Assembly: GCA_965199495.1 (NCBI GenBank)
Contig: CBDASK010000003.1
Location: forward strand, 256,001 to 320,000
DNA length: 64,000 bases
Direction: 5' to 3'
Source: Abditibacterium sp.
GTDB taxonomy: Bacteria; Armatimonadota; Abditibacteriia; Abditibacteriales; Abditibacteriaceae
Shown: positions 1,527 through 62,839 of the stretch, one piece after another
Numbering within the stretch: the first letter of the stretch is position 1
How the letters are laid out: every line of letters starts with the position of its first letter
Program-made: the position numbers and the translations under genes
The notes under the pieces: generated by a model
Database searches by the model: none
What the model saw: only the letters and a program-made list of their open reading frames with translations
What the model was told of the DNA's origin: nothing

Positions 1527-2057
1527 TTAATTTTCTCGCGGCTGAAACCGGCTCGCGCACGCCAGCATTCCCAGCACGCCCAACCCGAAAAACGAGAGCG
1601 GCGCCAGCACCGGCGGATGCTGCAATGCGGCGCCACCATGATGATGTTGCTCACCGCTCGACTGCTCGCCGCTCGATTTGTTATCGCCCGCGTGATCGCT
1701 TTCGTCGCCGCCGTGAACTGGCATTGACCACGCCGAAAGTTCGCGGCTCAAGCCCTGGATGGGCTTTTTGCCCGTGTGCAGCCACAGTCCCAACGGCCCG
1801 ACGATAAGGCCAACTGCGAAGCACCAGAACAAAATTTTGCGCCCGCCTTTGTTCCACCAGATCAGCGCCAAAATGCCCGCGATCAGCATCAGGCCGCTAT
1901 AAATTAAGGGCGTCCACGACAGCGGATGTTCGCCCAAAACTTCGCGGTGCGTGTAGCGGATTTCGAGCAGCAAGCCCAGCAATCCGCCCAGGGCAAACAG
2001 CACGATCCACTGGTTCAAACTCCAGCCGTTACGACGTTCGATGTTAATTTCTTGCAT
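1527..2057 (-). CDS. Hypothetical membrane protein (about 4 TM segments)
   Basis: 176-aa ORF with hydrophobic segments, 3 nt downstream of the enolase-family gene. Confidence 0.7.
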   Translation of the reverse strand: MQEINIERRNGWSLNQWIVLFALGGLLGLLLEIRYTHREVLGEHPLSWTPLIYSGLMLIAGILALIWWNKGGRKILFWCFAVGLIVGPLGLWLHTGKKPIQGLSRELSAWSMPVHGGDESDHAGDNKSSGEQSSGEQHHHGGAALQHPPVLAPLSFFGLGVLGMLACASRFQPREN

Positions 2058-2060
2058 AAT

Positions 2061-3170
2061 TCAAACCTCGACGCGAAACTTTTCCGCGTCCTGTTTTTTA
2101 AATTCCAGCCCCATTCCGGGCCGCGACAAATCCGGCCACAACGCGCCGCCCTGCGGCGTGGCTGCTCCGTCGAACAGCATTTGCTCGATACGAACGTGAT
2201 CGTGAAAATACTCGGCGTGACGCATCGCGGGCAGCGCGCAACCGATGTGCAAATGCAACGCGGGCGCGCAGTGCGACGACATTGGCATCGCGTAACTTTG
2301 GCATAAAGCGCCCACGCCCAGAAAATCGGAAAATCCGCCGCAACGCGTGGCGTCGGCTTGCAAAACGTCAACAGCGTTCGCTTCCAATCGTCGTTTAAAA
2401 TAGGGCAAATCGTAAGCGTATTCGCCATCGGCGATTTCCAGGCGCGCCGGGCCGACTTCGCGCAGCCACGCCATGCCGAAAACGTCGGTCGGATCGAGCG
2501 GTTGTTCCATCCAACGCGCATCGAATTCCCCAGCGAACGTCTCGCACCAATAAAGCGCCTGTTTGCGCGCATAGGCCGAATTGGCGTCCACGAACAGTTC
2601 GACATTTGGCCCAATCGCGTCGCGCGCAACTTGGGCGCGATGCCGGTCGTTTTGCGGGTCGCGCCCGACTTTCATCTTCACGCGCGTAATTCCCTGCGCC
2701 GCCCAATCGCCGAGCTGTTGCGTGAGTTGTTGGTCGGAATACGAGCAAAATCCGCCGCTTCCGTAAATCGGCAAACACGAACGAACCGCACCAAAAAGCG
2801 TAACCAAAGGCACGCCCAATAATCGCGCTTTCAAATCCCACAGCGCGTTGTCAACAGCAGCCACGGCCATCGCGCTCTGGCCGACTTCGCCCGTGTTGCG
2901 CACTTGATTTCGCATCGCCTGATGCGCTCCGGCAATCGCCATCGCGTCGCGGCCTTCGATGCGCGCAATCAACGAATCGGAAATAAACCGTGCTACGGCG
3001 GGCGGCGCGTAAGAATAACCCATGCCGATTTGGTCGCCCGCGTGCGCGTGAACTACGACAATCGTCGTCGAATCCCACGCCAAAGTGCCATCGGATTCGG
3101 GCGCGTCGGTCGGAATCGTATAAGCGGCGACTTCGATTTTGCGGAGGGGAAATTCGGGTTTCATGCTCAA
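2061..3170 (-). CDS. Mandelate racemase/muconate lactonizing enzyme family (enolase superfamily)
   Basis: AVDNALWDLKAR, KMK, VDAN, EQP, DGEY and SHC motifs. Confidence 0.9.
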   Translation of the reverse strand: MSMKPEFPLRKIEVAAYTIPTDAPESDGTLAWDSTTIVVVHAHAGDQIGMGYSYAPPAVARFISDSLIARIEGRDAMAIAGAHQAMRNQVRNTGEVGQSAMAVAAVDNALWDLKARLLGVPLVTLFGAVRSCLPIYGSGGFCSYSDQQLTQQLGDWAAQGITRVKMKVGRDPQNDRHRAQVARDAIGPNVELFVDANSAYARKQALYWCETFAGEFDARWMEQPLDPTDVFGMAWLREVGPARLEIADGEYAYDLPYFKRRLEANAVDVLQADATRCGGFSDFLGVGALCQSYAMPMSSHCAPALHLHIGCALPAMRHAEYFHDHVRIEQMLFDGAATPQGGALWPDLSRPGMGLEFKKQDAEKFRVEV

Positions 3171-3559
3171 ACATCGCCCGCGAAAGCGATTGTCGTCAGC
3201 AACGCGTTTTCCGACTGGCGCGAATCGAGGCGCGTGTGCTGCGCGATAATCGGCACATCCGAAACGATAACGCTCGAATAATCGGTGCCTTTGGGAATCG
3301 GTTCGGGATCAGTCAGATCATTGAAGCGTTGGTGCAGCGTGCGACGTGGCGCAACCGTGAGTTTGTAGGGGCCAACCGGATCGCGGTCGGCGAAGAAAAT
3401 CGTGATTTCAACGTGCGCTTCTTGCTCGGTCGTGTTAAGCAGACAAACCGCTTCGTGAGAAGTCATTGTTGGCGCGGGGCCGTGGCTGGTGGGCGGAATA
3501 TAGCCTTCGGGAATCGCCCATATCGTGCGGCCCAGAACGGGCGGATTTGAGTTCGCCAT
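3167..3559 (-). CDS. Anabaena sensory rhodopsin transducer (ASRT) family protein
   Basis: WAIPEGYIP...SHEAVCLLN...RRTLHQRFNDL...SDVPIIAQHTRLDSRQ signature. Confidence 0.9.
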   Translation of the reverse strand: MANSNPPVLGRTIWAIPEGYIPPTSHGPAPTMTSHEAVCLLNTTEQEAHVEITIFFADRDPVGPYKLTVAPRRTLHQRFNDLTDPEPIPKGTDYSSVIVSDVPIIAQHTRLDSRQSENALLTTIAFAGDV

Positions 3560-3659
3560 AGCGCCAGAAAATGCTGCGAGACCGGCGCCAAGCGATGAGA
3601 AAATTAGGATATTCTCATATCTCTGATTAAAATGCGCGCTTCCAAGGGAAAATTGAAAG

Positions 3660-4736
3660 TCAACGGCCCGGCGTGACGTAAAAAAACGCCATCGCTAAAA
3701 TCCCGTAAACCGCGACTAATAATAAACCCTCGAACCACGTTGTTTCGCCGTCTTGCGCGATGGAATTGACCGCGAAAGCCGCGCCCGCAATCGCGATGAG
3801 TTCGAGCGGATTGGAAAACACCAGGTTCATCGGATGACGGGTAAAATGCGAAATAATAACTAACAATGGCGCGACGAACAGCGCGACTTGAATCGAAGAG
3901 CCGACGGTGATGGTGAAAACCAGACCCATTTGATTTTGGCGCGCGAAGTAAATCGCCGACACGTATTCGGCGGCGTTGCCGATGACCGCCAGCACGATGA
4001 CGCCCAGAAAAAACGCCGAAACGCCCAACGTGCCCGCCGTGGCTTCCAAAGCGCCCGACACTAATTCGGCTTCGAGCGCCACCAAAACCGTCGCGCCCGC
4101 CAGCACGCCCAGAGCTTTGTTGCGACTCCATTTTTTTCCTTTCGTCGGTTCGCTCTCCTCCAACGCGAAAATATCGCGGTGCGTTTTCATCGTATAAATC
4201 AGATTGCCCACATAAACCAGAATGAGAACAATTGAGACGCCCAGACTCAAATGCTCCTCCAAACGACCGGCAGCGGCGGGGGCGACCAAACCGCGCTCGG
4301 TGTAACTAAAAAGCGCGGGCAACAGCAAAGCAATCGTGGTTAAAATCAGCAGACTCGACAACAAACCGGCGCGCTCGCGCTTGAACGTTTGGTTTTCGCG
4401 GCCCCGCGAACCGACCAAAATCGCGATGCCCAAACCCAACAAACTATTGCCGATAATCGAACCCGTCATCTGCCCTTTGACGACGGCGCTTTGCCCAGCC
4501 GCCAAAACGAAAAACGCCAGAATCAGTTCGGCCATATTGCCAAAAGTGACGTTCAATAATCCGCCAATCGCCGGGCCAGCGATGCGCGCCATCTGTTCGG
4601 TCGCACGCCGAATCCCATCGGCCAAAGGCACGATTCCAATAACCGCCGTGATAAAAACCCAAATCGCGCCCGCGTGGAAAACGTAGCCGAGCAACAGCGA
4701 AAGCGGGACGAAAGCTAATAAGATATTCCAGATCAT
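3660..4736 (-). CDS. Ca2+/H+ antiporter (CAX/ChaA family)
   Basis: [12 protein letters not shown] and GNAAEY alpha-repeat motifs; about 11 TM segments. Confidence 0.9.
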
Positions 4737-4746
4737 AAAAGCGATT

Positions 4747-5190
4747 TTAACGCGGCGATTTCTGTCGCGCCATCAACACCAACGTCGAGGGCACGCACGC
4801 GCCGCGATTCCAACCCAAAGTTTCGTTGCCGCCGTAACGATAACCATCGGCAAAACCGTAATGCGTTTCTTCGTCATCGTCGCTCGTCGCCAAAGCGTCA
4901 AGAGCCGCATCGCGTTCAGCGCTGGCGTCGCGTCCGCACGCTTCATCTAAAAGCGCGCCGAAAACTCCCAGCGCGACCGCATCGAACGGCGCGCCGTGAA
5001 TCTGGCAGAGCGCATCAACGACGCCCATTAAATAACCGCCGCCAAACGGTGTCGCGGCGACACCGGCGATTGGCCCCGTCGAAGGCGCCTCGCGCGCCAA
5101 TTCGATTTGCCCGGCCAATAAACGCCGCGCGTCGCGCAAAACGGCGGTTTGCGCAAGGGAAAGCGCGGGCGTTTTATTTGTCGTCGCCAT
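4747..5190 (-). CDS. Hypothetical protein
   Basis: 147-aa ORF overlapping the 3' end of the TPP gene, within the operon. Confidence 0.6.
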
Positions 5191-7033
5191 CTTCGTCCTC
5201 GCCGTGGCTGCTCAAATGCAACGCCTCTTTAACTTCGGAAACTTTCTCCGTCACCAGCGCCTTGACCGAATTCACGATGACGCCCTTTTCGTTGGGATCG
5301 CCTTTCAATAAGGCTTCGGCGGTGTTGCGCGCGAACTCGAACGAAATATGCGCTGGCAACGGCGGCACATTTTTATCGGTGTGAACATCCAAAAGCGTCA
5401 ATCCATCGTGCGCAAAAGCCGCATCCCACGCTTCGCCGATTTTTTCTGGATCGGTAACTTTGATGCCCTTGAACCCCAACATTTCGGCATAAGCCGCGTA
5501 ATCTATGCTCTCGACGTTTTGCGAACCTTCCCAGCGTGGATTGCCGTCTTCGGTGCGCATTTCCCACGAAACCTGCGTCAAATCGTCGTTGTGCAAAACC
5601 ATCACGACCAACTGTTTGTTGGGCCACAAATGCTGATATTTCTTGATCGTAATCAGTTCGTTCATGCCCAACATTTGAAACGCGCCATCGCCAATTGTGC
5701 AGACGACGGGCTTATCGGGAAAGGCGAACTTAGCAGCCACGGCGTAGGGCATCGCCGCCAACATCGTCGCCAAACGGCCCGACAAATCGCCGCGCATTCC
5801 CCTGCGCAAACGAATATGATGACCATACCAATCGGCGGTCGAACCGGCGTCGCAGGTCACAATCACACCGTCGGGCAAACGCTGGTTGAGTTCGTAAAAC
5901 ACGCGGCGCGGATTGATCGGGTCGGCTTTGTCATAGGCCAAATCGTGCAGCACGCCTTCCCATTCGCGCATCCCTTGGGCGACTTTTTCCTGAAAACTCA
6001 GGTCGTCGGTTGGCGAAATCAGCGGCAAAAGCGCCTGAAGCGTGGATTTGGCGTCGCCCCACAAATTGACTTCCATCGGATAGCGCACGCCCAATTGTCC
6101 GGGCCGCAAATCGATCTGAACACCGCGCGCCTGACCCGTCGGCGGCAAATAGCCCCCGTAGGGATAATTGGAGCCGATCATTACAAAGGTGTCGCAATCC
6201 TGCATCATTTTATAGGAAGGCAAGCTGCCCAGAAGTCCCAATTGTTCGCAATTGAAATCAATATCGCCGGGCACGACATCTTTGCCGCGCAACGCCGTCG
6301 TGATGCCCGCGCCGGTTACGCGCGCGAGTTCCAAAACTTCGTCGGTCGCGCCCAAAGCGCCCGCACCGACCAAAAGCGCGACGCGTTGGCCCGCTTTCAA
6401 AATATCGGCGGCGCGCGTCAGTTCTTCCAACGGCGGCGTAATTTTGATCGAAGTCGGCGCCGACGAACTGCGCGAAACATCAAGTTTTTTGGGCGCGTCC
6501 TCGCTTTTCATCTTTTGCACATCGTGCGGAATAACGATAACGCACGGTTGCCGGTGCGTAAGGGCAATGCGACAGGCGCGGTCAACCACGACTTGCGCTT
6601 GCGCGGGCGTCACGATGGTTTGAACGTAAGCCGCGACATCGGAAAAGGTGCGTTCGAGATTATTTTCCTGTTGATAGGCGCTGCCCAATGTTTCCAACGC
6701 CTGTTGCCCAACGATAGCCACGACGGGCTGGTTGTCCATCTGCGCATCGTAGAGACCGTTGAGCATATGAAAAGCGCCGGGGCTGGAAGTCGCCGTGCAG
6801 ACGCCGATTTTGCCCGTCCATTTGGCGTAGGCTGTCGCCATCAACGCGCAAATTTCTTCGTGCGTCGGGCGGATAAATTTCAGCGGCAAATCAGCGTCAT
6901 CGGCGCGGCCCAAGGCGCCATCGAAACCGCCGATGCCGTCGCCGGGAAAGCCGAAAATGTGGTCAACGCCCCATTCGAGGAGGCGGTCAATTACGAAGTC
7001 GCTGACGGTGTCGCGGGAATGAACAATGCTCAT
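5174..7033 (-). CDS. Thiamine pyrophosphate-requiring enzyme (pyruvate oxidase/PoxB-like)
   Basis: FGFPGDG, HEE, and the GDGAFQM...LHN TPP motif. Start placed at ATG 7033 (MSIVHSRDTVSDF). Confidence 0.9.
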   Translation of the reverse strand: MSIVHSRDTVSDFVIDRLLEWGVDHIFGFPGDGIGGFDGALGRADDADLPLKFIRPTHEEICALMATAYAKWTGKIGVCTATSSPGAFHMLNGLYDAQMDNQPVVAIVGQQALETLGSAYQQENNLERTFSDVAAYVQTIVTPAQAQVVVDRACRIALTHRQPCVIVIPHDVQKMKSEDAPKKLDVSRSSSAPTSIKITPPLEELTRAADILKAGQRVALLVGAGALGATDEVLELARVTGAGITTALRGKDVVPGDIDFNCEQLGLLGSLPSYKMMQDCDTFVMIGSNYPYGGYLPPTGQARGVQIDLRPGQLGVRYPMEVNLWGDAKSTLQALLPLISPTDDLSFQEKVAQGMREWEGVLHDLAYDKADPINPRRVFYELNQRLPDGVIVTCDAGSTADWYGHHIRLRRGMRGDLSGRLATMLAAMPYAVAAKFAFPDKPVVCTIGDGAFQMLGMNELITIKKYQHLWPNKQLVVMVLHNDDLTQVSWEMRTEDGNPRWEGSQNVESIDYAAYAEMLGFKGIKVTDPEKIGEAWDAAFAHDGLTLLDVHTDKNVPPLPAHISFEFARNTAEALLKGDPNEKGVIVNSVKALVTEKVSEVKEALHLSSHGEDEDGDDK

Positions 7034-7227
7034 AAGGGTGCTCGATAAAACAGAGATCAGGTCGTTCCAAACGAAGCCTTTGTCTTGTTCTTTATGTGAG
7101 CAACCCGAATGCCTTATCAAACAATTGGAGGTTTTTCAGGCCGAGTTAATCCAACGGAAACCGTTGTAACATCACTATTTTCGGCGTGATTACGGACAAA
7201 CCAACGCGAAAATAAGAGTTTTAGAAG

Positions 7228-8394
7228 TTAAGCCCCAGCCTTGGCGCTCGCCAATTCCAAAACGGCGCGCGCGATGTCGCGGGCGGCGGCGGGTTTGGCG
7301 AGCTTGCGCGCTTCCTCGCCCATTGCCCGCAAATCTTTGGCGTCGCGTAGCATCTCTTCGACTGTTTTGAGCAAGTTCGGCCCATCGCAATCGGACTGAC
7401 GCAGAATGCGGGCGGCACCCGCGTTGACGACCATTTGCGCGTTTTTGGTTTGCTCGTCGCCGCCCGTCGGCACGAGCGGAACGTAAAGCGCCGCTTTGCC
7501 GACCGCGCACATTTCGGTGACGGTTCCAGCGCCCGCGCGCCCGATGACCAAATCGGCGAGGGCCAAAACATCGCGCAGTTCGTGGCGAATGAATTTGCTC
7601 AACGCGTAGCGCCGTTGCAAGTGTTCCGGCAACGCCAGACGTGCCCGCGTTAAACGGTCGAAATCGTTCTCCTTTTCGGCGGATTGTTCGCCGCACTGGT
7701 GAATCACGCGCGCCTTTTCCAATAATTGCGGCAGACAATCTTCGATGGCGCGATTAATCACGCGCGCGCCCAAACTACCGCCGGTAATATAAATCGCGGA
7801 CAGGTTTTCGTCGGATAAACCGAAGTGTTGTGTCGCCGTGGCTGCATCGCCGCCGAAGATCGAGGCGCGCACGGGATTGCCCGCAACCCACGCGATTTCT
7901 TTGGCGCGCGGCGACAAAGAATGGCGCGCGCCTTCCCACGACAGCGCGATGCGCGTGGCAAAACGCGAATTAATGCGGTTGGCCAGACCGATTTGCACGG
8001 TTTGTTCGTGAATCAAAACTGGAATGTGATTCAAACCCGCCGCGACAACCGGCGGAACGGTGACGTAACCACCAGTCGCCAAAACCACATCAGGCTTGAA
8101 CTTCTTGATTTGATAAAGCGACTGCGCCAAACCGACGGGAATGCGAAATTGGTCGAGCAAGTTTTCCGGCGAAATGTAGCGGCGCAGTTTGCCCGTCGAA
8201 ATCGGCACGAACGGAATGCCCGCCGCCTCGACCAAACCGCGCTCCAAACCTTTTTTGGAGCCGATATATAAAAATTGCGCGTCGGGTTTCATCTGGCGTA
8301 GCGTTTCGATGAGCGCGAGGGCGGGCGAAATGTGGCCCGACGTGCCGCCGCCGGTCACCAAGATTCGCGGGGAATCGGAAGAATTGGTTGCCAT
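7228..8394 (-). CDS. murG: UDP-GlcNAc:lipid I GlcNAc transferase MurG
   Basis: TGGGTSGH, ATGGYV, HEQ, GNPVR, GGSLGA, RAGAGTVTE and EQTKNA motifs. Confidence 0.88.
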   Translation of the reverse strand: MATNSSDSPRILVTGGGTSGHISPALALIETLRQMKPDAQFLYIGSKKGLERGLVEAAGIPFVPISTGKLRRYISPENLLDQFRIPVGLAQSLYQIKKFKPDVVLATGGYVTVPPVVAAGLNHIPVLIHEQTVQIGLANRINSRFATRIALSWEGARHSLSPRAKEIAWVAGNPVRASIFGGDAATATQHFGLSDENLSAIYITGGSLGARVINRAIEDCLPQLLEKARVIHQCGEQSAEKENDFDRLTRARLALPEHLQRRYALSKFIRHELRDVLALADLVIGRAGAGTVTEMCAVGKAALYVPLVPTGGDEQTKNAQMVVNAGAARILRQSDCDGPNLLKTVEEMLRDAKDLRAMGEEARKLAKPAAARDIARAVLELASAKAGA

Positions 8395-8444
8395 ATCTTA
8401 GGCCGCGCAGTTTGGCAGAAATAGCCGATAAAGACACGCAGAAA

Positions 8445-9968
8445 CTATCGGCAACTCTTTTCCATTTCCGCCAACAGAGCCACCGCGTGTCGGCCCGGTT
8501 CGCGATAAATCGAATACAACGGCCCGACGACTTTAGCCGCTTCATCGGCATCGAACCATGCCGCTCCGCCTAATTTCGCCTGCGCTTCGACGTTTAATAA
8601 TACCGGCAATGCGCCCGGCATGATGGCACCGATGCCCGCCAAAATCGGCCCGCCCGCCCGCGCGATTTCGATCAAGCGCTCGACGTTGCGCGCGCCGATG
8701 CGGCCATAGGAAAGCGTCTCGACTTCCAAACCGGGCACGATGACTTTAACCGAATAAATGCCTTTATCGGCGGACGAAAAATCGGCGACCAGCACTTCCA
8801 AATCGTCGGCGCGCAATCTTTCGACGACGAAATTTAATAACGCGGTTTTATCGTCGTTAAGCGATTCAGGTTGCGTCGGCACGTCGGCAAAATCAATCCA
8901 ATTTTCGACGCGATGAACCGGCGCCATATTTTCGCGCACCTGTTCTAAATTTAATTTCGACCAATCGCTCAAACTTTGCAGCGCGCGTTGTTCTTCATCT
9001 TGGGGCGCGAAGTTCTGGCGAAACTCGTCCAAATATCCGTCGGGCGCGATTTGCTCGGCAATCGCCAGTGGCCCATGAAAAAACGCGATGCGCGCGCGCG
9101 CCGCCGCGAACTCCAACAACGCTTTGCGCAGCGCCACCACAGCCACCGGGTGACACGCCTCGCCGCCGCCCAGCGCCATCACGTTCGAGGCGCCATTTTC
9201 CGCATCAATTCTGTCAATGCCCGAAACATAAAATCCGGGAATCCCGCGATCTTGGGAAGCGAATTTCACTACGACATCCACGCCCATTCGCTCGAATTTA
9301 TCCAATAATTCGCGCGCGACCGGATCGTGGATCGTGCTTAAATCAAGCGCGTTTGTCGTGGCCAAAGCGCGAATCGAAAGGCCGTTGCCGTCGCGCTGCA
9401 ACAGTTCGAGCAAACCGTGAACGACCGCCATTTCATAAGTTGTCCCGGCGCCCAAACCGTTAGTGATCGGCGTCACCAAAAATCCGCGCCGCGTCTCGCC
9501 CAGCGCCGGATTGCCGTCGAGCGGTAAATCGCTCCAACCGCACGCGACGAATTCGAGCGGCACCCAGACTTTTTCGCCCGAACCAAAGCGGTTAATTTGC
9601 ACCCAATCCAATTCGATATGTTCGTCGTAAAGACTGCCCGCTTCCAAGCATAAATCGAGCGGATCAATGGCGGCGCACTGGCTCGCCTTCATTTCGGCGA
9701 ACGAGGCGCGCGTTTGCGGCCAATTTTCCAGGGCGTGGTGCGCCCAGAAATCTTCGGTTAATTCGCCGTAAGCGCCGCATCTGGCGCTGGCCGGAGTTTG
9801 GCCATAGCCGACGCCGCCTTTGTGCGGCCCGTTCGCGGGATAAAAAATCGCCGAGTGACAGTGAATGCCTAAGCGGTCGGCGCCCGACAACGCGAACTCG
9901 TTGATTTCGCCGTCGGGCAAAGCCGCGTGATATTTTTCAGTCGCGTTTTGGTAAATGGAATCTTGCAT
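8445..9968 (-). CDS. YcaO-like family protein (paralogue 1)
   Basis: GVGYG..PASARCGAYGELTE, ITNGLGAG...GLLELLQRDG, ALRKALLE and KVIVPGLE motifs. Confidence 0.85.
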   Translation of the reverse strand: MQDSIYQNATEKYHAALPDGEINEFALSGADRLGIHCHSAIFYPANGPHKGGVGYGQTPASARCGAYGELTEDFWAHHALENWPQTRASFAEMKASQCAAIDPLDLCLEAGSLYDEHIELDWVQINRFGSGEKVWVPLEFVACGWSDLPLDGNPALGETRRGFLVTPITNGLGAGTTYEMAVVHGLLELLQRDGNGLSIRALATTNALDLSTIHDPVARELLDKFERMGVDVVVKFASQDRGIPGFYVSGIDRIDAENGASNVMALGGGEACHPVAVVALRKALLEFAAARARIAFFHGPLAIAEQIAPDGYLDEFRQNFAPQDEEQRALQSLSDWSKLNLEQVRENMAPVHRVENWIDFADVPTQPESLNDDKTALLNFVVERLRADDLEVLVADFSSADKGIYSVKVIVPGLEVETLSYGRIGARNVERLIEIARAGGPILAGIGAIMPGALPVLLNVEAQAKLGGAAWFDADEAAKVVGPLYSIYREPGRHAVALLAEMEKSCR

Positions 9969-10020
9969 GATGTTTTAAAATCCCCACGATTAGAATCCCC
10001 GATTAAAATCGGAGCCTAAG

Positions 10021-10105
10021 AACGGCTACGCCGCAACTGTCCGCCTGCGCGGACACACAAAATCTGAGCTTGTCCGCGCAGGCGGACAGTTGCGGCGTAG
10101 CCGTT
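10021..10105. repeat. Perfect 35-bp inverted repeat (REP-like) flanked by two small hairpins
   Basis: AACGGCTACGCCGCAACTGTCCGCCTGCGCGGACA (10021-10055) with its reverse complement at 10071-10105. Small hairpins lie at about 9999-10012 and 10111-10130. Confidence 0.9.
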
Positions 10106-10136
10106 TCCAGACCCACAATTTATTGTGGGTTCGTAA

Positions 10137-43615: not shown

Positions 43616-43618
43616 CCG

Positions 43619-53607: not shown

Positions 53608-53616
53608 AGCTAAAAT

Positions 53617-53654: not shown

Positions 53655-53663
53655 GTTTTATCG

Positions 53664-53738: not shown

Positions 53739-53825
53739 GTTTTGCTCAAGAGATATTACCGCAAATCGAAGCCAATTTCAAGGGCTATTGCCAAGAAAAT
53801 TTCGAGCGGCACGTTTATCACCGCT

Positions 53826-54635: not shown

Positions 54636-54684
54636 AAACGAAATTTGGGAAACCGTTTTGCAATTCCCGGCAGCTCCTTTTATT

Positions 54685-55572
54685 ATGTCACAATCGTTTT
54701 CTTTGTTCGAACCTTTGACCGATCTCGAACCCAAACGGCGGCGCGTTTTGGTGACGGGCGCGGCGGGCCGCATCGGTTCGTTTTTCGCCTCCAAAACATA
54801 TGAGAAATATGATTTGCGTTTGATGGTGCGCGAAGACGACGAAGACGTGGACGCCATACAAGAATTCGGCGAAGTCGTGGTTTGCGATTTGTCCGAATTG
54901 CGCCGTCTCGAAACGCTGTGCGAGGGCATGGATACCGTCGTGCATCTGGCGGGCAATCCGTCACCCGAACAAACCTGGGATAGCGTGATCGCCAACAACA
55001 TTACCGGGACTTATAACGCGTTCGTCGCGGCCAAAGCGGCGGGCTGTCGGCGCGTGGTTTACGCGTCTTCGATTCACGCGGTTTCGGGTTATCCGCAGGG
55101 CGTGCAGGTCAAAACCAGCGAGCCGGTCAATCCCGGCGATTTGTATGGCGTCTCCAAATGTTTCGGCGAAGCGCTGGGCCGTTACATGGCGCAGCAGGAA
55201 AATTTGTCAGTTATTGCGCTACGTATCGGCGGCTTTCAACCCGAAACGACCGCGCGTAAACCTGAACTGAGCCTGATGGACGGCTGGGTTTCGCGCGAAG
55301 ATTTGATTCAACTCATCGAACGTTGCATTGACGTGCGCCAATTGAAGTGGGCGGTTTTTCACGCGCTCTCGAACAACACGTTCAATTGTCTCGATATTTC
55401 CGATGCGCGCGAATTGGTCGGTTACAATCCGCAGGACAATTTTACTCGCGAGAATCCGTTGCTCAAAGATTTGCATATTGACGAAGAATTGATGACTCAT
55501 GCTTTAACAGATGAAAGCAAATCGGGATTGCGCGATGAAGTCGCGGCGGCCAAAGGAGAAAACGCAGCTTAA
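54685..55572 (+). CDS. NAD-dependent epimerase/dehydrogenase (uronate dehydrogenase-like)
   Basis: TGAAGRIG, YASSIHAVSGY, YGVSKCFGE and LRIG motifs. Confidence 0.8.
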   Translation: MSQSFSLFEPLTDLEPKRRRVLVTGAAGRIGSFFASKTYEKYDLRLMVREDDEDVDAIQEFGEVVVCDLSELRRLETLCEGMDTVVHLAGNPSPEQTWDSVIANNITGTYNAFVAAKAAGCRRVVYASSIHAVSGYPQGVQVKTSEPVNPGDLYGVSKCFGEALGRYMAQQENLSVIALRIGGFQPETTARKPELSLMDGWVSREDLIQLIERCIDVRQLKWAVFHALSNNTFNCLDISDARELVGYNPQDNFTRENPLLKDLHIDEELMTHALTDESKSGLRDEVAAAKGENAA

Positions 55573-55665
55573 CGGAAACGGAGTTTGGCATTATATCTGC
55601 TTTTTTCTGGGCCACCCCAATTCAAAGGCGAGACCAATCATCGTCTATTTCAAGGAGATAAAATC

Positions 55666-56670
55666 ATGTCAACAGATAACATTAACGATCCGATCATCGA
55701 AAGCACACAGGCGCGTATCGAACAAATCAACCACCCCAACGATCCCGTGGTCGTCACTAACCGCGACGTGGTTGTGGGAACCGATCATGCGCGTCACGGT
55801 TTGGACGACGACCCCAACAACGACGCCGAGAAGGGCGCGGCGTTGGGCGGCCTGGGCGGCGCCGCAGTCGGTGCGGCGGCGGGTTCGATTGCCGGGCCAA
55901 TCGGCACGCTGGTTGGCGCCATCGCTGGCGGATTGGTCGGCGCGGGCGCGTCGGGCGCCGCCGTGGCTGCTGTTGACTCGATGGATAACGACAATACCGT
56001 CACCGGCATCGGCGATGGAGTCACGCTCGATAGCGATGGACGCCGCGTGGATACGGGCTATGCGCAACGCACGGGCGTCGTGATGGACGCGGACGCTCAC
56101 GGCCATAACATCGTGACGGGTGGCGAAGCGCACACCGAAGCGGGCGACACCGGCTTGGCGGGCGGCGCGGTTATCGGCGGCGTCGTTGGCGCGGTTGTTG
56201 GTGGGCCAGTTGGCGCAGTTGTTGGCGGCACTCTGGGTTCGCTGGCGGGCGGCGTGGCGGGCGATGCCACCGAAGCGGCGGACGAAGAGGGTTTGACCCG
56301 TCCCTCGGTTTACAACAGCCCAACCGAAACCAACATGGCGATCAATCCCGCCGCTTACACCGAAGGTTCGACAGCGATGGGCAATGCGGTTGTGCCGCCA
56401 GTCTCCACACCGATGGCCGATTCGGTTGTTGTCGGCGATAATTCGATTGGCGATGGGCACAACATCGTGACGGGCGGCCCAGCCACGACCGAGGCGGGCG
56501 ACGACGGATTGGCGGGCGGCGCCGTTGTTGGTGGCGTTATCGGAGCGGCGGTCGGCGGCCCGGTCGGCGCGGTCGTTGGCGGCACTTTGGGTTCGCTGGC
56601 GGGCGGCGTGGCTGGCGATGCGGCGGAAGCCGCCGCCGACGATGAGGTGACGCGCACCGATGTCCGTTAA
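55666..56670 (+). CDS. Acidic glycine-zipper repeat protein
   Basis: AAGGAG RBS; three GxxxG zipper segments, two of them within a duplicated unit of about 60 aa. Confidence 0.8.
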   Translation: MSTDNINDPIIESTQARIEQINHPNDPVVVTNRDVVVGTDHARHGLDDDPNNDAEKGAALGGLGGAAVGAAAGSIAGPIGTLVGAIAGGLVGAGASGAAVAAVDSMDNDNTVTGIGDGVTLDSDGRRVDTGYAQRTGVVMDADAHGHNIVTGGEAHTEAGDTGLAGGAVIGGVVGAVVGGPVGAVVGGTLGSLAGGVAGDATEAADEEGLTRPSVYNSPTETNMAINPAAYTEGSTAMGNAVVPPVSTPMADSVVVGDNSIGDGHNIVTGGPATTEAGDDGLAGGAVVGGVIGAAVGGPVGAVVGGTLGSLAGGVAGDAAEAAADDEVTRTDVR

Positions 56671-57061
56671 AGAAGAAGACATCGCCCGCGCTAACAATTA
56701 CGCGGGCGAGGCTTTTCAAGCCGATGCCGCGATGAACGAGGCGGTTCGTCCGATGGATCAAACTCCATCGGACGACGAAGTTAAACCCTCGGAGCAGACC
56801 GATTATCGCAGCGTAGACAATGGCCTGACCAGCATCGGTTCAACGAGCGAAAATGCCGACACCGCCATTTTGGGCCAGACCGATACGCCCGGAGTGCGCA
56901 CAGGCAGCGATGGAAATGCGCCCGGTGTCGAAGTCGTCGGACGCACGCAACAAGGGCCAGATGCCGAAGAGATCGTCGCCAGCGAATCCGATCCGATTAG
57001 CGGCGATAACGTAGACGACAAAACGGGCGGTGGCTTCGTCAACGACCCAGAAAATCGTTGA
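56660..57061 (+). CDS. Acidic, probably disordered hypothetical protein
   Basis: Overlaps the upstream gene; GAGGTG RBS-like sequence; rich in D, E, G and T. Confidence 0.65.
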   Translation: MSVKEEDIARANNYAGEAFQADAAMNEAVRPMDQTPSDDEVKPSEQTDYRSVDNGLTSIGSTSENADTAILGQTDTPGVRTGSDGNAPGVEVVGRTQQGPDAEEIVASESDPISGDNVDDKTGGGFVNDPENR

Positions 57062-57085
57062 TTTTCACCACAAGGAGAAAATAAC

Positions 57086-57262
57086 ATGGAAAATCCAAAA
57101 ACCGAAGAAACTACGCACAGCGATTCTACCGAACCGATTATCTCATGGTCGGGTGTGCAGGGAGAAACTCAAAGCGAAGACGTTGAAATTCCCAATGCGC
57201 AAGAACTCGATGTCGAAGAAAACAGAAGTGAAGATGGAGTTTCGGACACGAAAACAAATTAG
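57086..57262 (+). CDS. Small acidic protein (58 aa), missed by the ORF track
   Basis: AAGGAG RBS, then MENPKTEETTHSDSTEPIISWSGVQGETQSEDVEIPNAQELDVEENRSEDGVSDTKTN*, followed by a terminator. Confidence 0.7.
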   Translation: MENPKTEETTHSDSTEPIISWSGVQGETQSEDVEIPNAQELDVEENRSEDGVSDTKTN

Positions 57263-57271
57263 CCAATTGAG

Positions 57272-57307
57272 AAAAGCCGCGAATGGACTGTCCATTCGCG
57301 GCTTTTT
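57272..57307 (+). terminator. Rho-independent terminator
   Basis: AAAAGCCGCGAATGGAC-T-GTCCATTCGCGGCTTTTT. Confidence 0.85.
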
Positions 57308-57340
57308 GCGTTCTGCTTTTAATCAGATTTCTTCAAACCC

Positions 57341-57382
57341 AATAAAACCTCCGCCTTCATCAGAGAAAGCGGAGGTTTTATT
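57341..57382 (-). terminator. Rho-independent terminator
   Basis: AATAAAACCTCCGC...GCGGAGGTTTTATT. Confidence 0.75.
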
Positions 57383-57392
57383 TGATCGAACT

Positions 57393-58211
57393 CTATCGGC
57401 GTCCGCCCCACCAGCCGTTGGGACTGGCCGAGGGATTGAAAAGCTGTCCGCCGTCCGACTTACTCTTGGTTTCAAGATAGGCCGATACGCCCGACCAGAC
57501 GCCCTCACTGGCTAACGCCTGATAATCGCCGACATCGAGTTTGCCGCCCTTATGGAGAGCCTGATACTTTTGAAACGTCTTTGCAGAAGCGGGGTCGTTA
57601 AACACCAAGACCTGCATTGTCGTCCAACGGCCACCGGGAGCAATCGCCTGTCTGGCAGATCTCGCGAGTTGCCCCGCTTGAACATCTGAGAGACCGGGCG
57701 TATTCGACATGATCGCCACCGTTCCGTTAGACCAGCGCGGATTGGGCGGCACCACGATTTTGAATGTCGCTACTCGCGGCGTGCCTCCATCCGTCGGGTT
57801 TCCACTGGGACCAATCGTCGGCGGGCTTATGACTGGCGCTTGTTGAAGCGGTTGCACCTGTTGCACAGTTGTTACTGTTTCGTTTGGGCCATCTGGCAAT
57901 GTGGGCAAATCGGTGGAAGTGTTTCCGCCTCCGCCACCACCGAACATTCCAGTAGTGAACCCTCCGATGATGAGCGCGGCCACCAGCAGACCAGCAACTA
58001 AAAATATCTTTGGATCGATCGCTTTTTTCTCGTCGTCCGCGTGGGCGGCAGTGGCAGCGGGTGTCACTGCGGCTGCGCCTCCACGGGGTGCGACTAAACC
58101 TCCTCCTGCAACGGCGGCGGCGCCACCAGCTAATGGCGTATAGCACGCCCAACACATCACGGCCTCAGCCGGATTTTCTTCCCCACATTTGGGGCATTTT
58201 TTATTGGCCAC
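57393..58211 (-). CDS. Zinc-ribbon, single-TM, proline-rich hypothetical protein
   Basis: CPKCG...CWAC, one TM segment and a Pro/Gln-rich linker. Confidence 0.7.
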   Translation of the reverse strand: MANKKCPKCGEENPAEAVMCWACYTPLAGGAAAVAGGGLVAPRGGAAAVTPAATAAHADDEKKAIDPKIFLVAGLLVAALIIGGFTTGMFGGGGGGNTSTDLPTLPDGPNETVTTVQQVQPLQQAPVISPPTIGPSGNPTDGGTPRVATFKIVVPPNPRWSNGTVAIMSNTPGLSDVQAGQLARSARQAIAPGGRWTTMQVLVFNDPASAKTFQKYQALHKGGKLDVGDYQALASEGVWSGVSAYLETKSKSDGGQLFNPSASPNGWWGGRR

Positions 58212-58522
58212 GGAACTCCTTGGTATGATGAAAATTAAAAAACCGCTTTTATTTTACCCATCTTGACAACTATTTAAACAGGCAACCGAAAAACGATACC
58301 CTCAATATAACTAAAATCCCCAAACAAAACCGGGTTTTCAGGCGATTTTCGTTGGTATTGATGAATGAATTTCGGTTTTTCTGTGATTAGTCCCTTTTTT
58401 GAAAACTCTGACAACACAATGATGCGCAGAATCGAATTTTTCGCTTTCGAGGCTCACTGATCTAAAAACAATCGGATGTCCCGCAAAATAATTATTCAGA
58501 GGGTAAACGGTATGCCTTCAGT

Positions 58523-59971
58523 TTAACGCGAAAGCACATCATTTTCACCTACACGATGCAATTTCATCAGATTGGTTGAACCTGACAGCGTCACGGGCGC
58601 GCCCAAGATAACCACGACCTTGTCGCCCGGCGCCACCAAACCCGACGCCAACAACTCTTTGTCGGCCAAGCCAATCATTTCGTCGGTCGAAAAACTCGGC
58701 GCGATGGGCATGGCCCGCACGCCCCACGCCATATTCAACTGGCGCACGACCCACGGATAAGGTGTCATCGCCAAAACCGGGACGGGCGGACGAAATTTGG
58801 CCAGTTTGCGCGCCGTACTGCCGCGCTCGGTGAAGCAGACGATGGCCTTGGCATTGAGATTTCCCGCCGCGCTGGCCGCCGCCTGACAGATCGCCGACGC
58901 AAAATCGTCTTCGCCATAAGAAAACAGATACGGCCCGGCCTTGCCGTCTTCGATAGCGCCTTCGGTTTTGGAAACGATGCGCGCCATCGTTTTCACGGCG
59001 TCAATGGGATGACTGCCCGCCGCCGTTTCGCCCGAAAGCATCACCGCATCCGTTCCGTCAATGATGGCATTAGCCACGTCGGATGCCTCGGCGCGCGTCG
59101 GGCGCGGATTCACCGTCATGCTTTCCAGCATTTGAGTGGCTGTGATAACCATTTTGCCCAGCGCGTTGGCGCGGCTGATGATGCGTTTTTGCAGCATCGG
59201 CACATCTTCGGGTGCCATCTCGACGCCCAAATCGCCGCGCGCCACCATCACGCCGTCCGACGCTTCGATAATCTCGTCGAGATTATCCATCGCTTCGGGT
59301 TTTTCCAATTTGGAAATCAACTTGATATTGCTCATCGAGCCGTTGATAATATCGCGGAGTTGCATCACGTCTTCGACGCGGCGCACAAACGAAAGCGCGA
59401 CGTAATCCAATTTTTGCGCGATGGCCCATTCGACATCGTGCAAATCTTTGTCGCTGAGGGCGGGCGCCGAAACGTTGACGCCGGGCAAATTGATGCCCTT
59501 GCTATTTTTCAAAATGCCGCCGTCCACGACAACGCATTTGACATCGGTATCGGTCGTGGCTTCGACGCGCAGCGACAGATTGCCATCGTCTAATAAAATC
59601 GAATCGTTGACGCGGCAATCGCGCGGCAGAGCGTGATAGGTCGTCGAAACCTCGCTTTCGTCGCCCTCGACGTTGCGCGTGGTGAGCGTGAAAGAGCGGC
59701 CCGCGACCAATTCGATGGGGCCACAGGCCAAGTTGCCGGTGCGAATTTTTGGGCCTTGCAGGTCTTGCAGCAGAGCCACCGGGCGTCCTTCTTCGCGCGA
59801 GATTTCGCGCAGTTGCTCGACATGCGGCGCATGAGCCAACGGGCCGCCATGCGAAAAATTGAAGCGCGCCACGTCCATGCCCGAAAGCACGAGCGCGCGC
59901 ATGACTTGATGCCCTTGCGAAGCCGGGCCGAGCGTAGCGATGATTTTGGCGCGACGAGAATGTAAATCCAT
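58523..59971 (-). CDS. pyk: Pyruvate kinase
   Basis: KIIATLGPAS, RFNFSHG, DLQGPKIR, VARGDLG and DAVMLSGETA motifs. Confidence 0.97.
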   Translation of the reverse strand: MDLHSRRAKIIATLGPASQGHQVMRALVLSGMDVARFNFSHGGPLAHAPHVEQLREISREEGRPVALLQDLQGPKIRTGNLACGPIELVAGRSFTLTTRNVEGDESEVSTTYHALPRDCRVNDSILLDDGNLSLRVEATTDTDVKCVVVDGGILKNSKGINLPGVNVSAPALSDKDLHDVEWAIAQKLDYVALSFVRRVEDVMQLRDIINGSMSNIKLISKLEKPEAMDNLDEIIEASDGVMVARGDLGVEMAPEDVPMLQKRIISRANALGKMVITATQMLESMTVNPRPTRAEASDVANAIIDGTDAVMLSGETAAGSHPIDAVKTMARIVSKTEGAIEDGKAGPYLFSYGEDDFASAICQAAASAAGNLNAKAIVCFTERGSTARKLAKFRPPVPVLAMTPYPWVVRQLNMAWGVRAMPIAPSFSTDEMIGLADKELLASGLVAPGDKVVVILGAPVTLSGSTNLMKLHRVGENDVLSR

Positions 59972-60074
59972 AAATAACTCCGAAAGCGAAAACGCACTTC
60001 GCCCCCGCAAATTGTAACGCGATTGGGCCTTTGGTTTCAAGCGCAAATTAAGAAGCAGAACTGACATACACATA

Positions 60075-60112
60075 CGAAAGGGCAGCGACTTGGTCAAGTC
60101 GCTGCCCTTTCG
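60075..60112. terminator. Stable hairpin, probable terminator
   Basis: CGAAAGGGCAGCGACTTG-GT-CAAGTCGCTGCCCTTTCG. Confidence 0.75.
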
Positions 60113-60129
60113 TTATTTTTCGAGAATGC

Positions 60130-61062
60130 TTAGCCGTCGCCGCCCAGATCGCCCTGACCAATCGAATCGAACGAATTCGACGGTTGATTGAGACCTTTTT
60201 GCATCGGAGAATATTCGACGGTGTAAGCGCCCGCGTTGAAGTAGCGTTGGTTGGCTTTGTCGCTGGTGTAACTCTTCAAAAGTTCCTTAACGCCGTCGCC
60301 CTTGCGCTTGCGTTTGGTGGGCTGAAAATAATCGTCAATGGTCTCCAGCCACGGCGAGACCACAACTTCGCCCGTGTTGCTCAGGCGCGACGGCGGATTG
60401 ACGCGCAATGGATCGTTGATATAGGACGTGATGGCGGCGTTGAGTTCGCTGTCAAGGTTAAATCCCAGAATCGAGCCGCTCACGGCACGCGGCCCAGATT
60501 TGGTGCCGTCCATCAACACGAACAAAGCGCGTGGGTCAATGGCGATGATTTTCTTGCGCAGTTCGTCCAGACTCATCTGTTCGCCAGCGACTTTATGCTT
60601 TTGCGTAGTTAGACCGGCGATGTCGCCGACATTGCTCACCGGATACGCCTGCGCGACGGCTTGCAGAAACAGACCGTTATAGGCGTTGATATAAAATGAC
60701 AACGGCTGGCGCTGATCGAGATAAGGTGCGCCTGTTTCATCTTTGTCTTTGAAGACCGGAAAATTGTTCATATCCGCCTCGCCGACCGCGCGCACGAAAA
60801 CGGCGAGGTCGTCGTTGTTGCGGGCGAAACCGTAATTCACTTCGCCCGCTTTATTAACGACTTTGGACATCACGCGATTGAGAATTTCGTAGGGAAACGC
60901 CACGCCCTGCCCCAACGCTTTGATCTGTTCGATGGTCATATCGGCGGCGGCGGGCCGCGTAGGCGCGACAGTCACGATGCCGGTGGCTTGTGCGTGCGCT
61001 GCTAAGGAGAGCGGTGCCAGCAGACCGATGGCGAGTAAGGCGGGAAGAATTCGGGTTTTCAT
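60130..61062 (-). CDS. Secreted DUF547-like protein
   Basis: Signal peptide; SFYINAYN, SLDEL and DPRALFVL motifs. Confidence 0.72.
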   Translation of the reverse strand: MKTRILPALLAIGLLAPLSLAAHAQATGIVTVAPTRPAAADMTIEQIKALGQGVAFPYEILNRVMSKVVNKAGEVNYGFARNNDDLAVFVRAVGEADMNNFPVFKDKDETGAPYLDQRQPLSFYINAYNGLFLQAVAQAYPVSNVGDIAGLTTQKHKVAGEQMSLDELRKKIIAIDPRALFVLMDGTKSGPRAVSGSILGFNLDSELNAAITSYINDPLRVNPPSRLSNTGEVVVSPWLETIDDYFQPTKRKRKGDGVKELLKSYTSDKANQRYFNAGAYTVEYSPMQKGLNQPSNSFDSIGQGDLGGDG

Positions 61063-61169
61063 GGGAATTATGCGTTGTATTTTCTTTTGTTGGAGTTTGA
61101 GTTGGGCCAGACGTTGCATCCGCGCTCAGAGTTCGCGAGTTTTTGACTAAGTCTCTTTAACATAACAAT

Positions 61170-61832
61170 TTATCGCTCGCGGTAACTCGCGCCCAACTCG
61201 CGAATCGCGTTTTGCCAACGCCGCCCGATCTCTTCCAACACTTCGCGGCTGGCGCGTTGCGCATACAAATCGTTCAACTCCAACGGTTTGCCGATGCGAA
61301 TTTCGGTGCGCACGAGTTTAAATTTCGGGTTCATCGGCGAAAGCGCGCGGTTGGTGCCACCCAGAAATATCGGCACAATCGCGGCTTTGGCGCCGTGCGC
61401 CATCATCGCCACGCCGATTTCGGGCGCTTGCAGTTGGCCATCGCGCGAGCGTGTGCCTTCGGGGAAAATAATGATCGCCTCGCCCTCTTTGAGCAACCTG
61501 CGCGCGGTGCGCATCGCGCGGCGGTCGGCCTCGCCGCGATGAACGGGAAAGGTGCCCATCTGCTCGATGACCCAGCCGAAGGCGCCTTTGAACAGTTCGG
61601 CTTTGGCCATCGTGTAGGGCCAGCGCCCGCACGAAACGCCGACGATGGGCGGATCTAAATCGGAAACGTGATTGGGCGCCAAAATCACCGGGCCGCTCTG
61701 CGGAACATTGCGCCGACCGTAAACGCGCGAACGGCCCAAACGCAGATAGCCTTTATAGAGCGCGGTCATAATCGCGAAGACAACGGTATGGCGTGGCACG
61801 AAATCGGGAGCAAAGGCTTTGTTGGGTTTCAT
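61170..61832 (-). CDS. plsC: 1-acyl-sn-glycerol-3-phosphate acyltransferase (PlsC family)
   Basis: NHVSDLD, MAKAELF and FPEGTRS motifs. Confidence 0.88.
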   Translation of the reverse strand: MKPNKAFAPDFVPRHTVVFAIMTALYKGYLRLGRSRVYGRRNVPQSGPVILAPNHVSDLDPPIVGVSCGRWPYTMAKAELFKGAFGWVIEQMGTFPVHRGEADRRAMRTARRLLKEGEAIIIFPEGTRSRDGQLQAPEIGVAMMAHGAKAAIVPIFLGGTNRALSPMNPKFKLVRTEIRIGKPLELNDLYAQRASREVLEEIGRRWQNAIRELGASYRER

Positions 61833-61918
61833 CGAAAGGTCGGCTTCTTCGTTTACCAAATTTCGCGACGCGTGTTCGCGAATTTCTCGTTACGCGCGAA
61901 AATCGCTGAGAATTGAGT

Positions 61919-62141
61919 TAACGCTGTGTGCAAGTTCTAAAACCGCTTGGATTGTCATGGGTGCGCAGTGAGGAACGAACGAAGTCGAAGAATCCACCAA
62001 TTGCGCGTTGACTTCGCTTTGGTTTCGACTCTAAATTATGGATTCTTCGACTTCGTTCGTTCCTGCTGCCCAGAGGGCGCCCGCGCTCAGAATGACAAAG
62101 GGGGAGAGAGTGAACGTGAATAGAACTTGTACACGGAGTCA
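61919..62141. mobile_element. MITE/REP-like nested palindromic element, copy 2 (inverted relative to 49501)
   Basis: The right end, reverse-complemented, reads CCGTGTACAAGTTCTATTCACGTTCACTCTCTCCCCCTTTGTCATTCTGAGCG, nearly identical to 49505-49557. Same inner GAGGAACGAACG.AGTCGAAGAA palindrome. Confidence 0.8.
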
Positions 62142-62158
62142 CCTCCAATTTATTAACC

Positions 62159-62839
62159 ATGAGATTTCTTGATAATCAATCGCCCCAGGCGCGCGCAAAG
62201 CAACTGTTGCTGGCGTGGGGCTTGGTGCTGGCGCCGTTTTTATTGTGGGGCGGGCTGGCCGAAAATATTTGGAAGCGCGAATCGTTTCGCTTCGACAACC
62301 CGATTTTGCTGTGGCTGCACGCGCACTCTAACACCTTTCTCGACCGCCTGATGGTGGGATTGTCGCTCGTCGGCGGGTACCCGTTGCTCGTCGCATCGGT
62401 GCTGTTGTGCGTGGGTTTTTGGCTGGCGCACAAACATCGCGAGGCGCTTTTTGTCGCGCTGTGCATGGGCGGCGCGAGCGCGCTCAACGTCACCGCAAAA
62501 ATTATCTTTCATCGCACGCGGCCCGATTTGTGGGTTTCGCTGGCGCCCGAACACGATTATAGTTTTCCCAGTGGGCACGCGATGGTTTCGAGCGCATTTA
62601 TCGCCACGATTTTGGCGCTGATCTGGGCGGCGACCAGCACTACAGCCACCGGCAGGATGTGGCGCTCGATTGCGGCGCCAATTGGCGTTGTGTTCGTGCT
62701 GGCGGTGGGTTTATCGCGGCTTTATTTGGGCGTGCATTATCCGTCGGATATTTTGGCGGGTTGGCTGGCCTCGCTGGGTTGGGTCGCCATGATTCGGATC
62801 TTTCAGATTTTGCCGAAGTTTGTGAGACAAAACAAATAA
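62159..62839 (+). CDS. PAP2 family phosphatase
   Basis: KIIFHRTRP, SFPSGH and SRLYLGVHYPSD motifs. Confidence 0.92.
   Translation: MRFLDNQSPQARAKQLLLAWGLVLAPFLLWGGLAENIWKRESFRFDNPILLWLHAHSNTFLDRLMVGLSLVGGYPLLVASVLLCVGFWLAHKHREALFVALCMGGASALNVTAKIIFHRTRPDLWVSLAPEHDYSFPSGHAMVSSAFIATILALIWAATSTTATGRMWRSIAAPIGVVFVLAVGLSRLYLGVHYPSDILAGWLASLGWVAMIRIFQILPKFVRQNK

Follow-up and report, generated by a model that had tools for sequence, protein, structure and literature searches.

The stretch of Abditibacterium sp. DNA described here (the window, 64,000 nucleotides, C3:256001-320000) belongs to a genome of 4.81 Mb in three contigs (C1, C2 and C3) that we label G000, the relatives compared with it being G001–G043. 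It holds ordinary metabolism and signalling genes, and scattered through these on both strands is a short iterated word, which is the subject of this analysis. The gene models are from our own gene caller (4,003 genes, 83% coding), and every coding or intergenic statement below rests on them. An earlier note on the window had listed 33 copies of an octamer, each of which is an exact match; the true total is 34 (17 on each strand), the copy at 20064 on the minus strand having been overlooked. Dinucleotide shuffles of the window yield a mean of 1.74 octamers and a maximum of 7, with 0/100 reaching 34. The extension to CGTGGCTGC that had been described for most copies is present in 29 of the 34, and 20 of the 34 continue to CGVCGTGGCTGC. 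The octamer is not the unit it had been taken for, since what is really conserved is a core, CGVCGTGGCT, followed by a graded GCW extension.

Full 12-mers, CGVCGTGGCTGC, occur 11 times on the plus strand between 2154 and 55970 (starts 2154, 5200, 7834, 10356, 17524, 25731, 42051, 50265, 51836, 54441 and 55959) and nine times on the minus strand between 5733 and 54363 (low coordinates 5733, 15491, 22287, 27616, 28203, 30559, 36976, 45335 and 54352). Ten-base cores lacking the GC extension, all of them new relative to the earlier note, add eight plus-strand sites spanning 4035..56613 (4035, 12444, 13915, 18899, 30203, 38569, 43357 and 56604) and ten minus-strand sites spanning 13713..60356 (13713, 15754, 21093, 23215, 24148, 33828, 43334, 52151, 59072 and 60347). 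The weaker, octamer-only sites number six on the plus strand (16176, 23419, 30471, 34405, 46640 and 62311; span 16176..62318) and eight on the minus strand (1778, 2462, 2857, 20064, 24456, 32724, 35263 and 53083; span 1778..53090). The octamers fall in varied reading frames (V-A-A, A-A-T, W-L and others), as had been noticed; 31 are coding, and three (25735, 45335 and 51840) rather than two are intergenic. By our gene calls, all three intergenic copies are full sites, at 25731..25742 (plus), 45335..45346 (minus) and 51836..51847 (plus). One close inverted pair of cores, minus then plus and 23 bp apart, lies at 43334..43366 within a peptidase C26 gene.

The word is iterated throughout the genome. 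The octamer occurs 2,073 times against 275 expected from an order-4 Markov model, and the core CGVCGTGGCT occurs 2,801 times, with 1,392 plus and 1,407 minus copies on C3. In 20 within-gene synonymous-codon shuffles, the coding octamers (1,867) compare with 219 ± 17, the coding cores (2,548) with 119 ± 11, a 21-fold excess, and coding CGVCGTGGCTGC (1,189) with 23 ± 5; core and 12-mer are thus enriched 21–50 fold. The earlier note had staked the motif on enrichment remaining once codon usage and Markov background are controlled for; as the excess over the codon shuffles demonstrates, it persists. The consensus, derived from flank profiles and single-mismatch counts, is the non-palindromic CGVCGTGGCT(GCW): the best 13-mer is present 349 times, and altering one base at core positions 2 or 4–10 reduces this to 0–8. 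All six frames are used, with x-V-A in sense (1,200) and A-T-x in antisense (830) dominating, and 41% (2,028/5,011) of the synonymously permitted places in these two frames hold the word. The codons GCT and GCA on which it draws are rare, as had been surmised (GCG 78,496, GCC 50,558, GCT 15,074 and GCA 8,826).

The distribution relative to the replichores, which the earlier note had proposed to examine, is even, with equal strand counts in all 19 bins of 250 kb, although replichores are only weakly visible in this genome. The strand counts are more even than binomial, at 0.46–0.55 of the expected variance. The equal strand split had been used to argue against Chi, the recombination signal of RecBCD/AddAB, and against the FtsK-orienting polar sequences (KOPS). 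That argument holds for KOPS and for a replichore-skewed Chi; the accompanying assumption that the word is indifferent to orientation does not, since orientation governs its spacing.

With close inverted pairs removed, 80 same-strand pairs are found at 30–500 bp against 327 expected, and 357 opposite-strand pairs against 355. The relative density of same-orientation pairs is 0.11 in the first 100 bp, 0.33 at 400–500 bp and 0.95 at 1.2 kb, a near-linear rise with a slope of 0.72 per kb and an intercept of 0.05, which is the chance level; opposite-orientation pairs are as expected, except for an excess under 30 bp. Per-strand spacing follows a gamma shape of 2.0, and each strand is separately covered about every 3 kb by about 1,400 copies. 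The places at which the word could be written synonymously reveal the same pattern: 7% are occupied when a same-strand site lies within 150 bp, compared with 51–55% at 1–5 kb, and occupancy does not differ with distance to an opposite-strand site (37–46%). For both orientations, occupancy drops beyond 5 kb.

Several controls bear on the level at which this avoidance acts. It is graded by site strength (0.12, 0.31 and 1.15, with 0.12 being the value for pairs of 12-mers), it is independent of whether the variable bases match (0.15–0.30), and it persists between genes of opposite strand (12 same, 48 opposite). It is absent from 60 control 7-mers (0.79–1.72) and from generic coding 10-mers (1.69, that is, an excess of direct repeats). 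Together, the scaling with strength, the indifference to the variable base, the crossing of gene boundaries and the control words argue for a strand-specific redundancy at the level of DNA that reaches about 1.2 kb. On the same strand, a second copy is thus shown to be fully redundant at zero distance and fully favored beyond about 1.2 kb, with a copy on the other strand having no influence. An effect at the level of mRNA or of the gene is out, as the word lies in the gene sense orientation in 56% of cases, is distributed flatly along genes and avoids itself across opposite-strand gene pairs. One might suppose that codon or peptide bias produces the pattern, or that slippage deletes close direct repeats; the latter would fit the observation that avoidance is strongest between the longest matches (0.12). 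Both are refuted, and we give them practically no weight: the Markov model and the codon shuffles exclude codon, peptide and Markov artefacts, as does a codon-context null in which same-strand pairs number 224 ± 14 (minimum 180 in 500 draws) against 44 seen and opposite-strand pairs 215 ± 14 against 205, and the variable-base, opposite-strand gene and generic 10-mer results above speak against slippage as well. In the literature covered on Abditibacterium genomes, uptake-like words, Armatimonad motifs and same-strand spacing, a coverage that excludes most subscription papers and all supplements and in which older papers on uptake signals were unchecked for a per-strand effect, we found no description of the word or of its spacing rule.

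Among 31 genomes of the class, the core is enriched in three, G000 (2,801), G011 (2,548) and G004 (912), compared with 41–211 copies elsewhere; searching 41 genomes of the phylum with a 12-mer had the same outcome. These three carriers form one clade by FtsZ identity and in a DprA tree. Conservation in relatives, another check that had been proposed, is seen in aligned orthologues: sites of G000 are also present at 32/42 positions in G011, 21/172 in G004 and 1/106 in non-carriers. The retention background in G011 is 28–29% (28% for all in-frame 10-mers, 20/68 for peptide-matched controls). Alignment gaps near the sites are rare (0/42 in G011, 5/172 in G004 and 12 of 106 in non-carriers), and the sites therefore arose by substitution. 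Tripeptides that the word encodes are up to about twice as common as their reversed controls (DVA 810 vs AVD 373, ATP 829 vs PTA 377), and relatives conserve the site codons less well than the remainder of the protein (0.71 vs 0.83 and 0.52 vs 0.69). Lower conservation at site codons is also reported for uptake sequences (PMC2817400, in excerpt). Between G000 and G004, lineage-specific sites do not avoid one another (11 same, 14 opposite) and do avoid shared sites (2 same, 13 opposite); on these small numbers there is a weak indication of compensatory site turnover.

REP elements (repetitive extragenic palindromes) carry a GTAG or GTGG head, and in G004 the dialect of the word, GGACGTGGCTGSTGT, is found both in genes and in intergenic inverted doublets headed by GTAG. 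In G004:C8:860001-1260000, these REP-like doublets contain the word, and some coding copies face gaps in G000. One may ask, then, whether the word is debris or a target of a REP system with its REP-associated tyrosine transposase (RAYT). G004 partly fits the pattern of extragenic hairpins, the words of G017 (palindromic) and G001 often form doublets resembling paired REP elements (REPINs), and Y1 transposases are present in 12/13 genomes of the genus. In G000, however, 91% of the cores are coding, in frame and free of insertions or hairpins, and the sites are single, made by substitution and not clustered at Y1 loci. The genome's own REP families differ in sequence from the word, and flanking by a RAYT fails as a candidate since no clusters of the word occur at the Y1 loci. 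For G000 this origin is largely refuted, and we regard it as very improbable. One of those REP families, GTAGAGAC..., has about 294 C3 sites from 83229 on, 276/294 of them intergenic, and another, GTAGGGGCTTGCC..., lies around a short Y1 transposase gene at C3:1873449-1874480.

Acquired DNA, whose comparison had likewise been proposed, is poor in the word. C1 and C2 hold 2 cores against 53 expected, and a plasmid, a phage and several islands are nearly empty. By eye, six of the seven largest gaps on C3 are islands or prophage, with recombinases, ParB and phage structural genes, and the seventh is a polysaccharide cluster. The bare octamer is still 3–4 fold over Markov expectation in C1, C2 and the prophage.

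At least five other members of the family carry other words, either palindromic or arranged as inverted doublets. G017 has 2,412 copies of AGTACGGTCGA, which occurs 0–5 times in the other 26 family genomes; most copies form doublets of 24 bp that have A/T tails (71 of them in 200 kb), and this word is enriched between genes and in inverted pairs. In G017:C14:640001-840000, the 24-bp palindromic AGTACGGTCGA doublet recurs about every 1.5 kb, with hardly any neighbors under 500 bp. Iterated palindromes are found in G020 (TCGAGTACTCGA), G022 (GAGTACTC) and G014 (GCAAGTACTTGC) at about 0.7–1.1 per kb and even spacing. These three genomes together with G024 and G043 contain palindromes on AGTACT resembling HIP1, the highly iterated palindrome of cyanobacteria (GCGATCGC), evenly spaced at about one per kb and lineage-specific. 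The word of G001, CCACAAAAAATGA, occurs 49 times in 55 kb (about 0.9 per kb), within genes including addAB and as inverted pairs. Among 27 family genomes, eight are clear word carriers, three are tentative (G024, G043 and G042), 13 show none in 16–139 kb and three are inadequately sampled. As to shared cores, G000, G011 and G004 have CGTGGCT, G017, G020, G022 and G014 have AGTAC, and G001 has neither. Per-strand tiling in G011 and G004 trends like that of G000, although for G001, G004, G011 and G017 small samples or abundant doublets prevent these genomes from proving it by themselves.

The word is thus real, selected and clade-specific; it behaves like an uptake sequence in most of the genomic tests, though not in the one for terminators, and it is in addition strictly spaced on each strand. 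The explanation that we favor, to which the genomic patterns lend about an even chance, is that it serves as a self-DNA tag for natural transformation, comparable to the DNA uptake sequence (DUS) of Neisseriaceae and the uptake signal sequence (USS) of Pasteurellaceae, and is read on each strand in one orientation. The 10–12 bp DUS is read by the minor pilin ComP, and ComN is predicted as the reader of USS (PMC12616744, in excerpt). A sequence-specific protein of the uptake pathway, either a minor pilin or one acting at ComEC or later, where one strand is imported, would read the word and commit a strand or direction set by it over a tract of roughly 1.2 kb. Uptake and recombination would favor alleles bearing the word, and copies would build up by drive at every place the codons permit until neither strand is left uncovered. 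In relatives, palindromes or inverted doublets of other words would serve the same need on the two strands, a link we infer because one such copy covers both of them. Drive is favored because it best explains protein-altering gains, the absence of the word from newcomers and the fast replacement of words, with a USS control (below) pointing in the same direction.

The DUS/USS option, among those listed in the earlier note, fits best: the size of the word, its fold-enrichment, its origin by point mutation, the bias in tripeptides, its absence from mobile DNA, its dialects and the intact competence genes all agree with it. Like DUS and USS (whose core is 9 bp), the word is a non-palindromic stretch of 9–13 bases at 0.6–0.9 per kb without replichore bias, with preferred frames, tripeptide enrichment, gain by point mutation, scarcity in mobile DNA, lineage dialects and under-dispersed spacing. 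Copy number is likewise far above the codon-aware background (about 1,000–2,000 or more in those systems, 2,801 cores here). It differs from them in phylum and sequence, and in a strand-specific avoidance that is complete and reaches 1.2 kb.

A preference for one strand at the level of single-stranded DNA has been reported for DUS (cited in the accessible text of PMC12061091), and the even spacing of USS is already known from Karlin et al., as cited in the part of PMC1939737 available. Our USS control comprises 52 loci (≥9 kb, named Pasteurellaceae, with overlaps and non-family rows dropped) from 130 matches, about 80 of which had flanks, together with 400 kb of one Haemophilus influenzae chromosome; the loci were picked around an inverted pair, which may bias the set. 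Unpaired USS at 30–500 bp give 67 same-strand pairs against 124.5 expected (0.54) and 102 opposite-strand pairs against 119.4 (0.85; binomial p = 0.002). As in G000, same-strand avoidance exceeds opposite-strand avoidance.

A number of observations weigh against an uptake tag. The USS asymmetry is weaker and shorter (about 0.5 kb) than that in G000, and when inverted pairs are kept, USS repel both ways (88 of 196 and 116 of 198 at 100–500 bp); USS uptake is, moreover, reported to be orientation-independent (PMC1939737, in the same excerpt). The intergenic enrichment typical of DUS and USS, where inverted pairs often serve as terminators, is missing, as density is 0.30 per kb between genes vs 0.65 per kb in coding sequence, a ratio inside the range of control words. 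Inverted pairs are few: opposite-strand pairs under 30 bp number 62 among 2,799 C3 sites, 15 of them intergenic hairpins, and about 4% of sites are closely paired in this way. The words of the family lack one core common to them all, those of G000, G001 and G017 being unrelated, whereas the Neisseriaceae dialects all share CTG (PMC3630211, in excerpt). A retron island region holds the word at normal density (5+5 sites in 14 kb). Finally, competence genes are equally common in word-free genomes.

The competence set of G000 is intact, with ComEC (859 aa), DprA, ComEA, pilus ATPases, a prepilin peptidase and minor pilins, the last at C3:867.7–872.6 kb. ComEC is present in 13/13 genomes of the genus, DprA in 25/27 of the family, and ComEA with seven PilB/PilT-type ATPases in 5/5 tested; because non-carriers have them equally, these genes do not discriminate. 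No carrier-specific domain was found in ComEA, ComEC or DprA. Three minor pilins are 57, 41 and 59% identical between G000 and G004 against a median of 84%, a fast divergence that is compatible with a changing receptor, yet usual for surface proteins. In G012, a near-complete non-carrier, ComEA is a 62-aa frame and ComEC has 558 aa, possibly reflecting decaying competence.

The spacing rule could instead reflect an intracellular, Chi-like signal for directional break repair or recombination, in which an enzyme would load at an end or gap and move along until it meets a word in the correct orientation, where it acts; we consider this somewhat unlikely. Two-ended breaks need both orientations and would lead to each strand being tiled, and a first-encounter process predicts both the linear same-strand rise (slope 0.72 per kb, intercept 0.05) and the gamma shape of 2.0. 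As with Chi and KOPS, orientation matters, and a partly Chi-like action has been proposed for HIP1 (bioRxiv 2024.09.10.611283, in excerpt). A candidate reader exists at G000:C3:4111365-4115630, a 1,421-aa protein with a PD-(D/E)xK nuclease fused to a Dna2-type superfamily 1 (SF1) helicase, which within the genus is present in 3/3 carriers and 0/10 others, with AddA showing the reversed pattern. Since the carriers are one clade, however, this correlation counts as a single event. G001, G020, G022 and G014 have words without a nuclease-helicase match, and G016 has the nuclease-helicase and no word in 125 kb; as a general reader the protein thus fails family-wide and is a candidate for this clade alone. 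It is present where the clade lacks AddAB and, in the G011 assembly, is either broken or split; distant relatives occur in other phyla, the family being uncharacterised among the matches seen.

The known enzymes that read Chi were not encountered. RecC was found in 0/5 genomes, including all three carriers, and AddA in 0/3 carriers (one protein query); in G000, neither RecBCD nor AddAB nor NurA was found, and there is one FtsK. By one query, the AddAB pair is present in 10/13 genomes of the genus and 0/14 other family genomes. Loss of AddAB as the cause of the word fitted the genus initially and was abandoned, as G001 combines its word with AddAB and the 14 other family genomes lacking AddA are with or without words. 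Four-fold sites up to 3 kb from the word showed no one-sided skew or GC footprint, and carriers show no clear difference toward weaker GC skew or more genome shuffling. Known Chi words have 5–8 bases and are replichore-skewed. The skew of Chi-type motifs with replication direction is stated in PMC3384302 (in excerpt), and the word studied here, by comparison, is longer, unskewed and far more enriched.

A methylated or nicked site would provide another per-strand device. Under Dam/MutH logic for strand discrimination, or as a methylated tag of the HIP1 type, a non-palindromic site would mark one strand, and each strand would need its own set within about 1 kb. The range and the per-strand redundancy fit such a scheme, and so do the AGTACT-based palindromes of relatives, which resemble methyltransferase targets. 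Like HIP1, the word is highly iterated in coding and non-coding DNA, and G020, G022 and G014 carry iterated palindromes of their own. HIP1 has been proposed as an uptake tag (PMC13756078, in excerpt), and it raises transformation in a way that depends on methylation (bioRxiv 2024.09.10.611283, as excerpted). The word itself is non-palindromic and longer than HIP1, and its graded 10–13 base consensus is long for a methyltransferase. Among the PF01555 matches in five genomes, the only one common to G000 and G004 and absent from G012 is a Type II-like enzyme beside a restriction gene; no carrier-specific N6/N4 methyltransferase was found among these matches (other families were not searched). The HIP1-like or methyltransferase-linked option of the earlier note accordingly gained no positive support, even though relatives do carry HIP-like palindromes, and we judge this scheme improbable.

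Regular spacing, a sharp consensus and the strand counts that are evener than binomial would also suit binding sites for a protein that organises the nucleoid or chromosome, polymerising or looping in one orientation. A factor spacing double-stranded sites should, however, also part those on opposite strands, and these are independent. A structural role also sits poorly with the rapid swap of one word for unrelated others inside a single family, and there is no candidate protein. Such sites are, in our estimation, more improbable still than methylation.

Other features of the window and genome were recorded in passing. The ilvC gene (31476..32471, minus strand), whose product is 94% identical to an Abditibacterium utsteinense protein, served to place the genome. 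In the window, murG (7228-8358) and ftsZ (43619-44713) stand apart, outside any cell-division cluster, and the ftsZ context is genus-wide. Two YcaO genes (8445-9968 and 12294-13757) cluster with a glycosyltransferase, a PIG-L gene, an oxidoreductase and a gene similar to dehydroquinate (DHQ) synthase, possibly forming a biosynthetic locus. Elsewhere on C3 are a CRISPR array with 131 exact repeats at about 2766.5–2775 kb and a prophage at about 4229.7–4270 kb, identified by eye, with portal, capsid and 7-deazaguanine genes (queC, folE, queE and queD-like).

Only two families have established sequence-specific uptake tags (bioRxiv 2025.10.24.684340, in excerpt), with HIP1 as a debated third case. 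It is possible, and we suggest it tentatively, that Abditibacteriaceae are a third family with sequence-specific uptake, in which the tag would have arisen anew three or more times, in the form of a tiled asymmetric word, an inverted doublet or a palindrome, all under one rule of a word every 1–3 kb per strand that would also hold for the Haemophilus USS. If so, uptake sequences would exert their effect on each strand separately, once the DNA has been bound at the surface. The spacing rule is a measurable signature of a reader that works along one strand, or in one direction, across about 1.2 kb, and it predicts that in donor DNA with two sites, a second site on the same strand brings no gain, whereas sites on opposite strands are additive. 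Should the word be an internal repair signal, it would point to a new directional enzyme in bacteria without RecBCD and AddAB. A tag in a distant phylum, where close relatives use unrelated words, would offer a natural series in which to look for the receptor and follow changes in specificity, and adding the word to donor DNA could render these hard-to-culture soil bacteria transformable.

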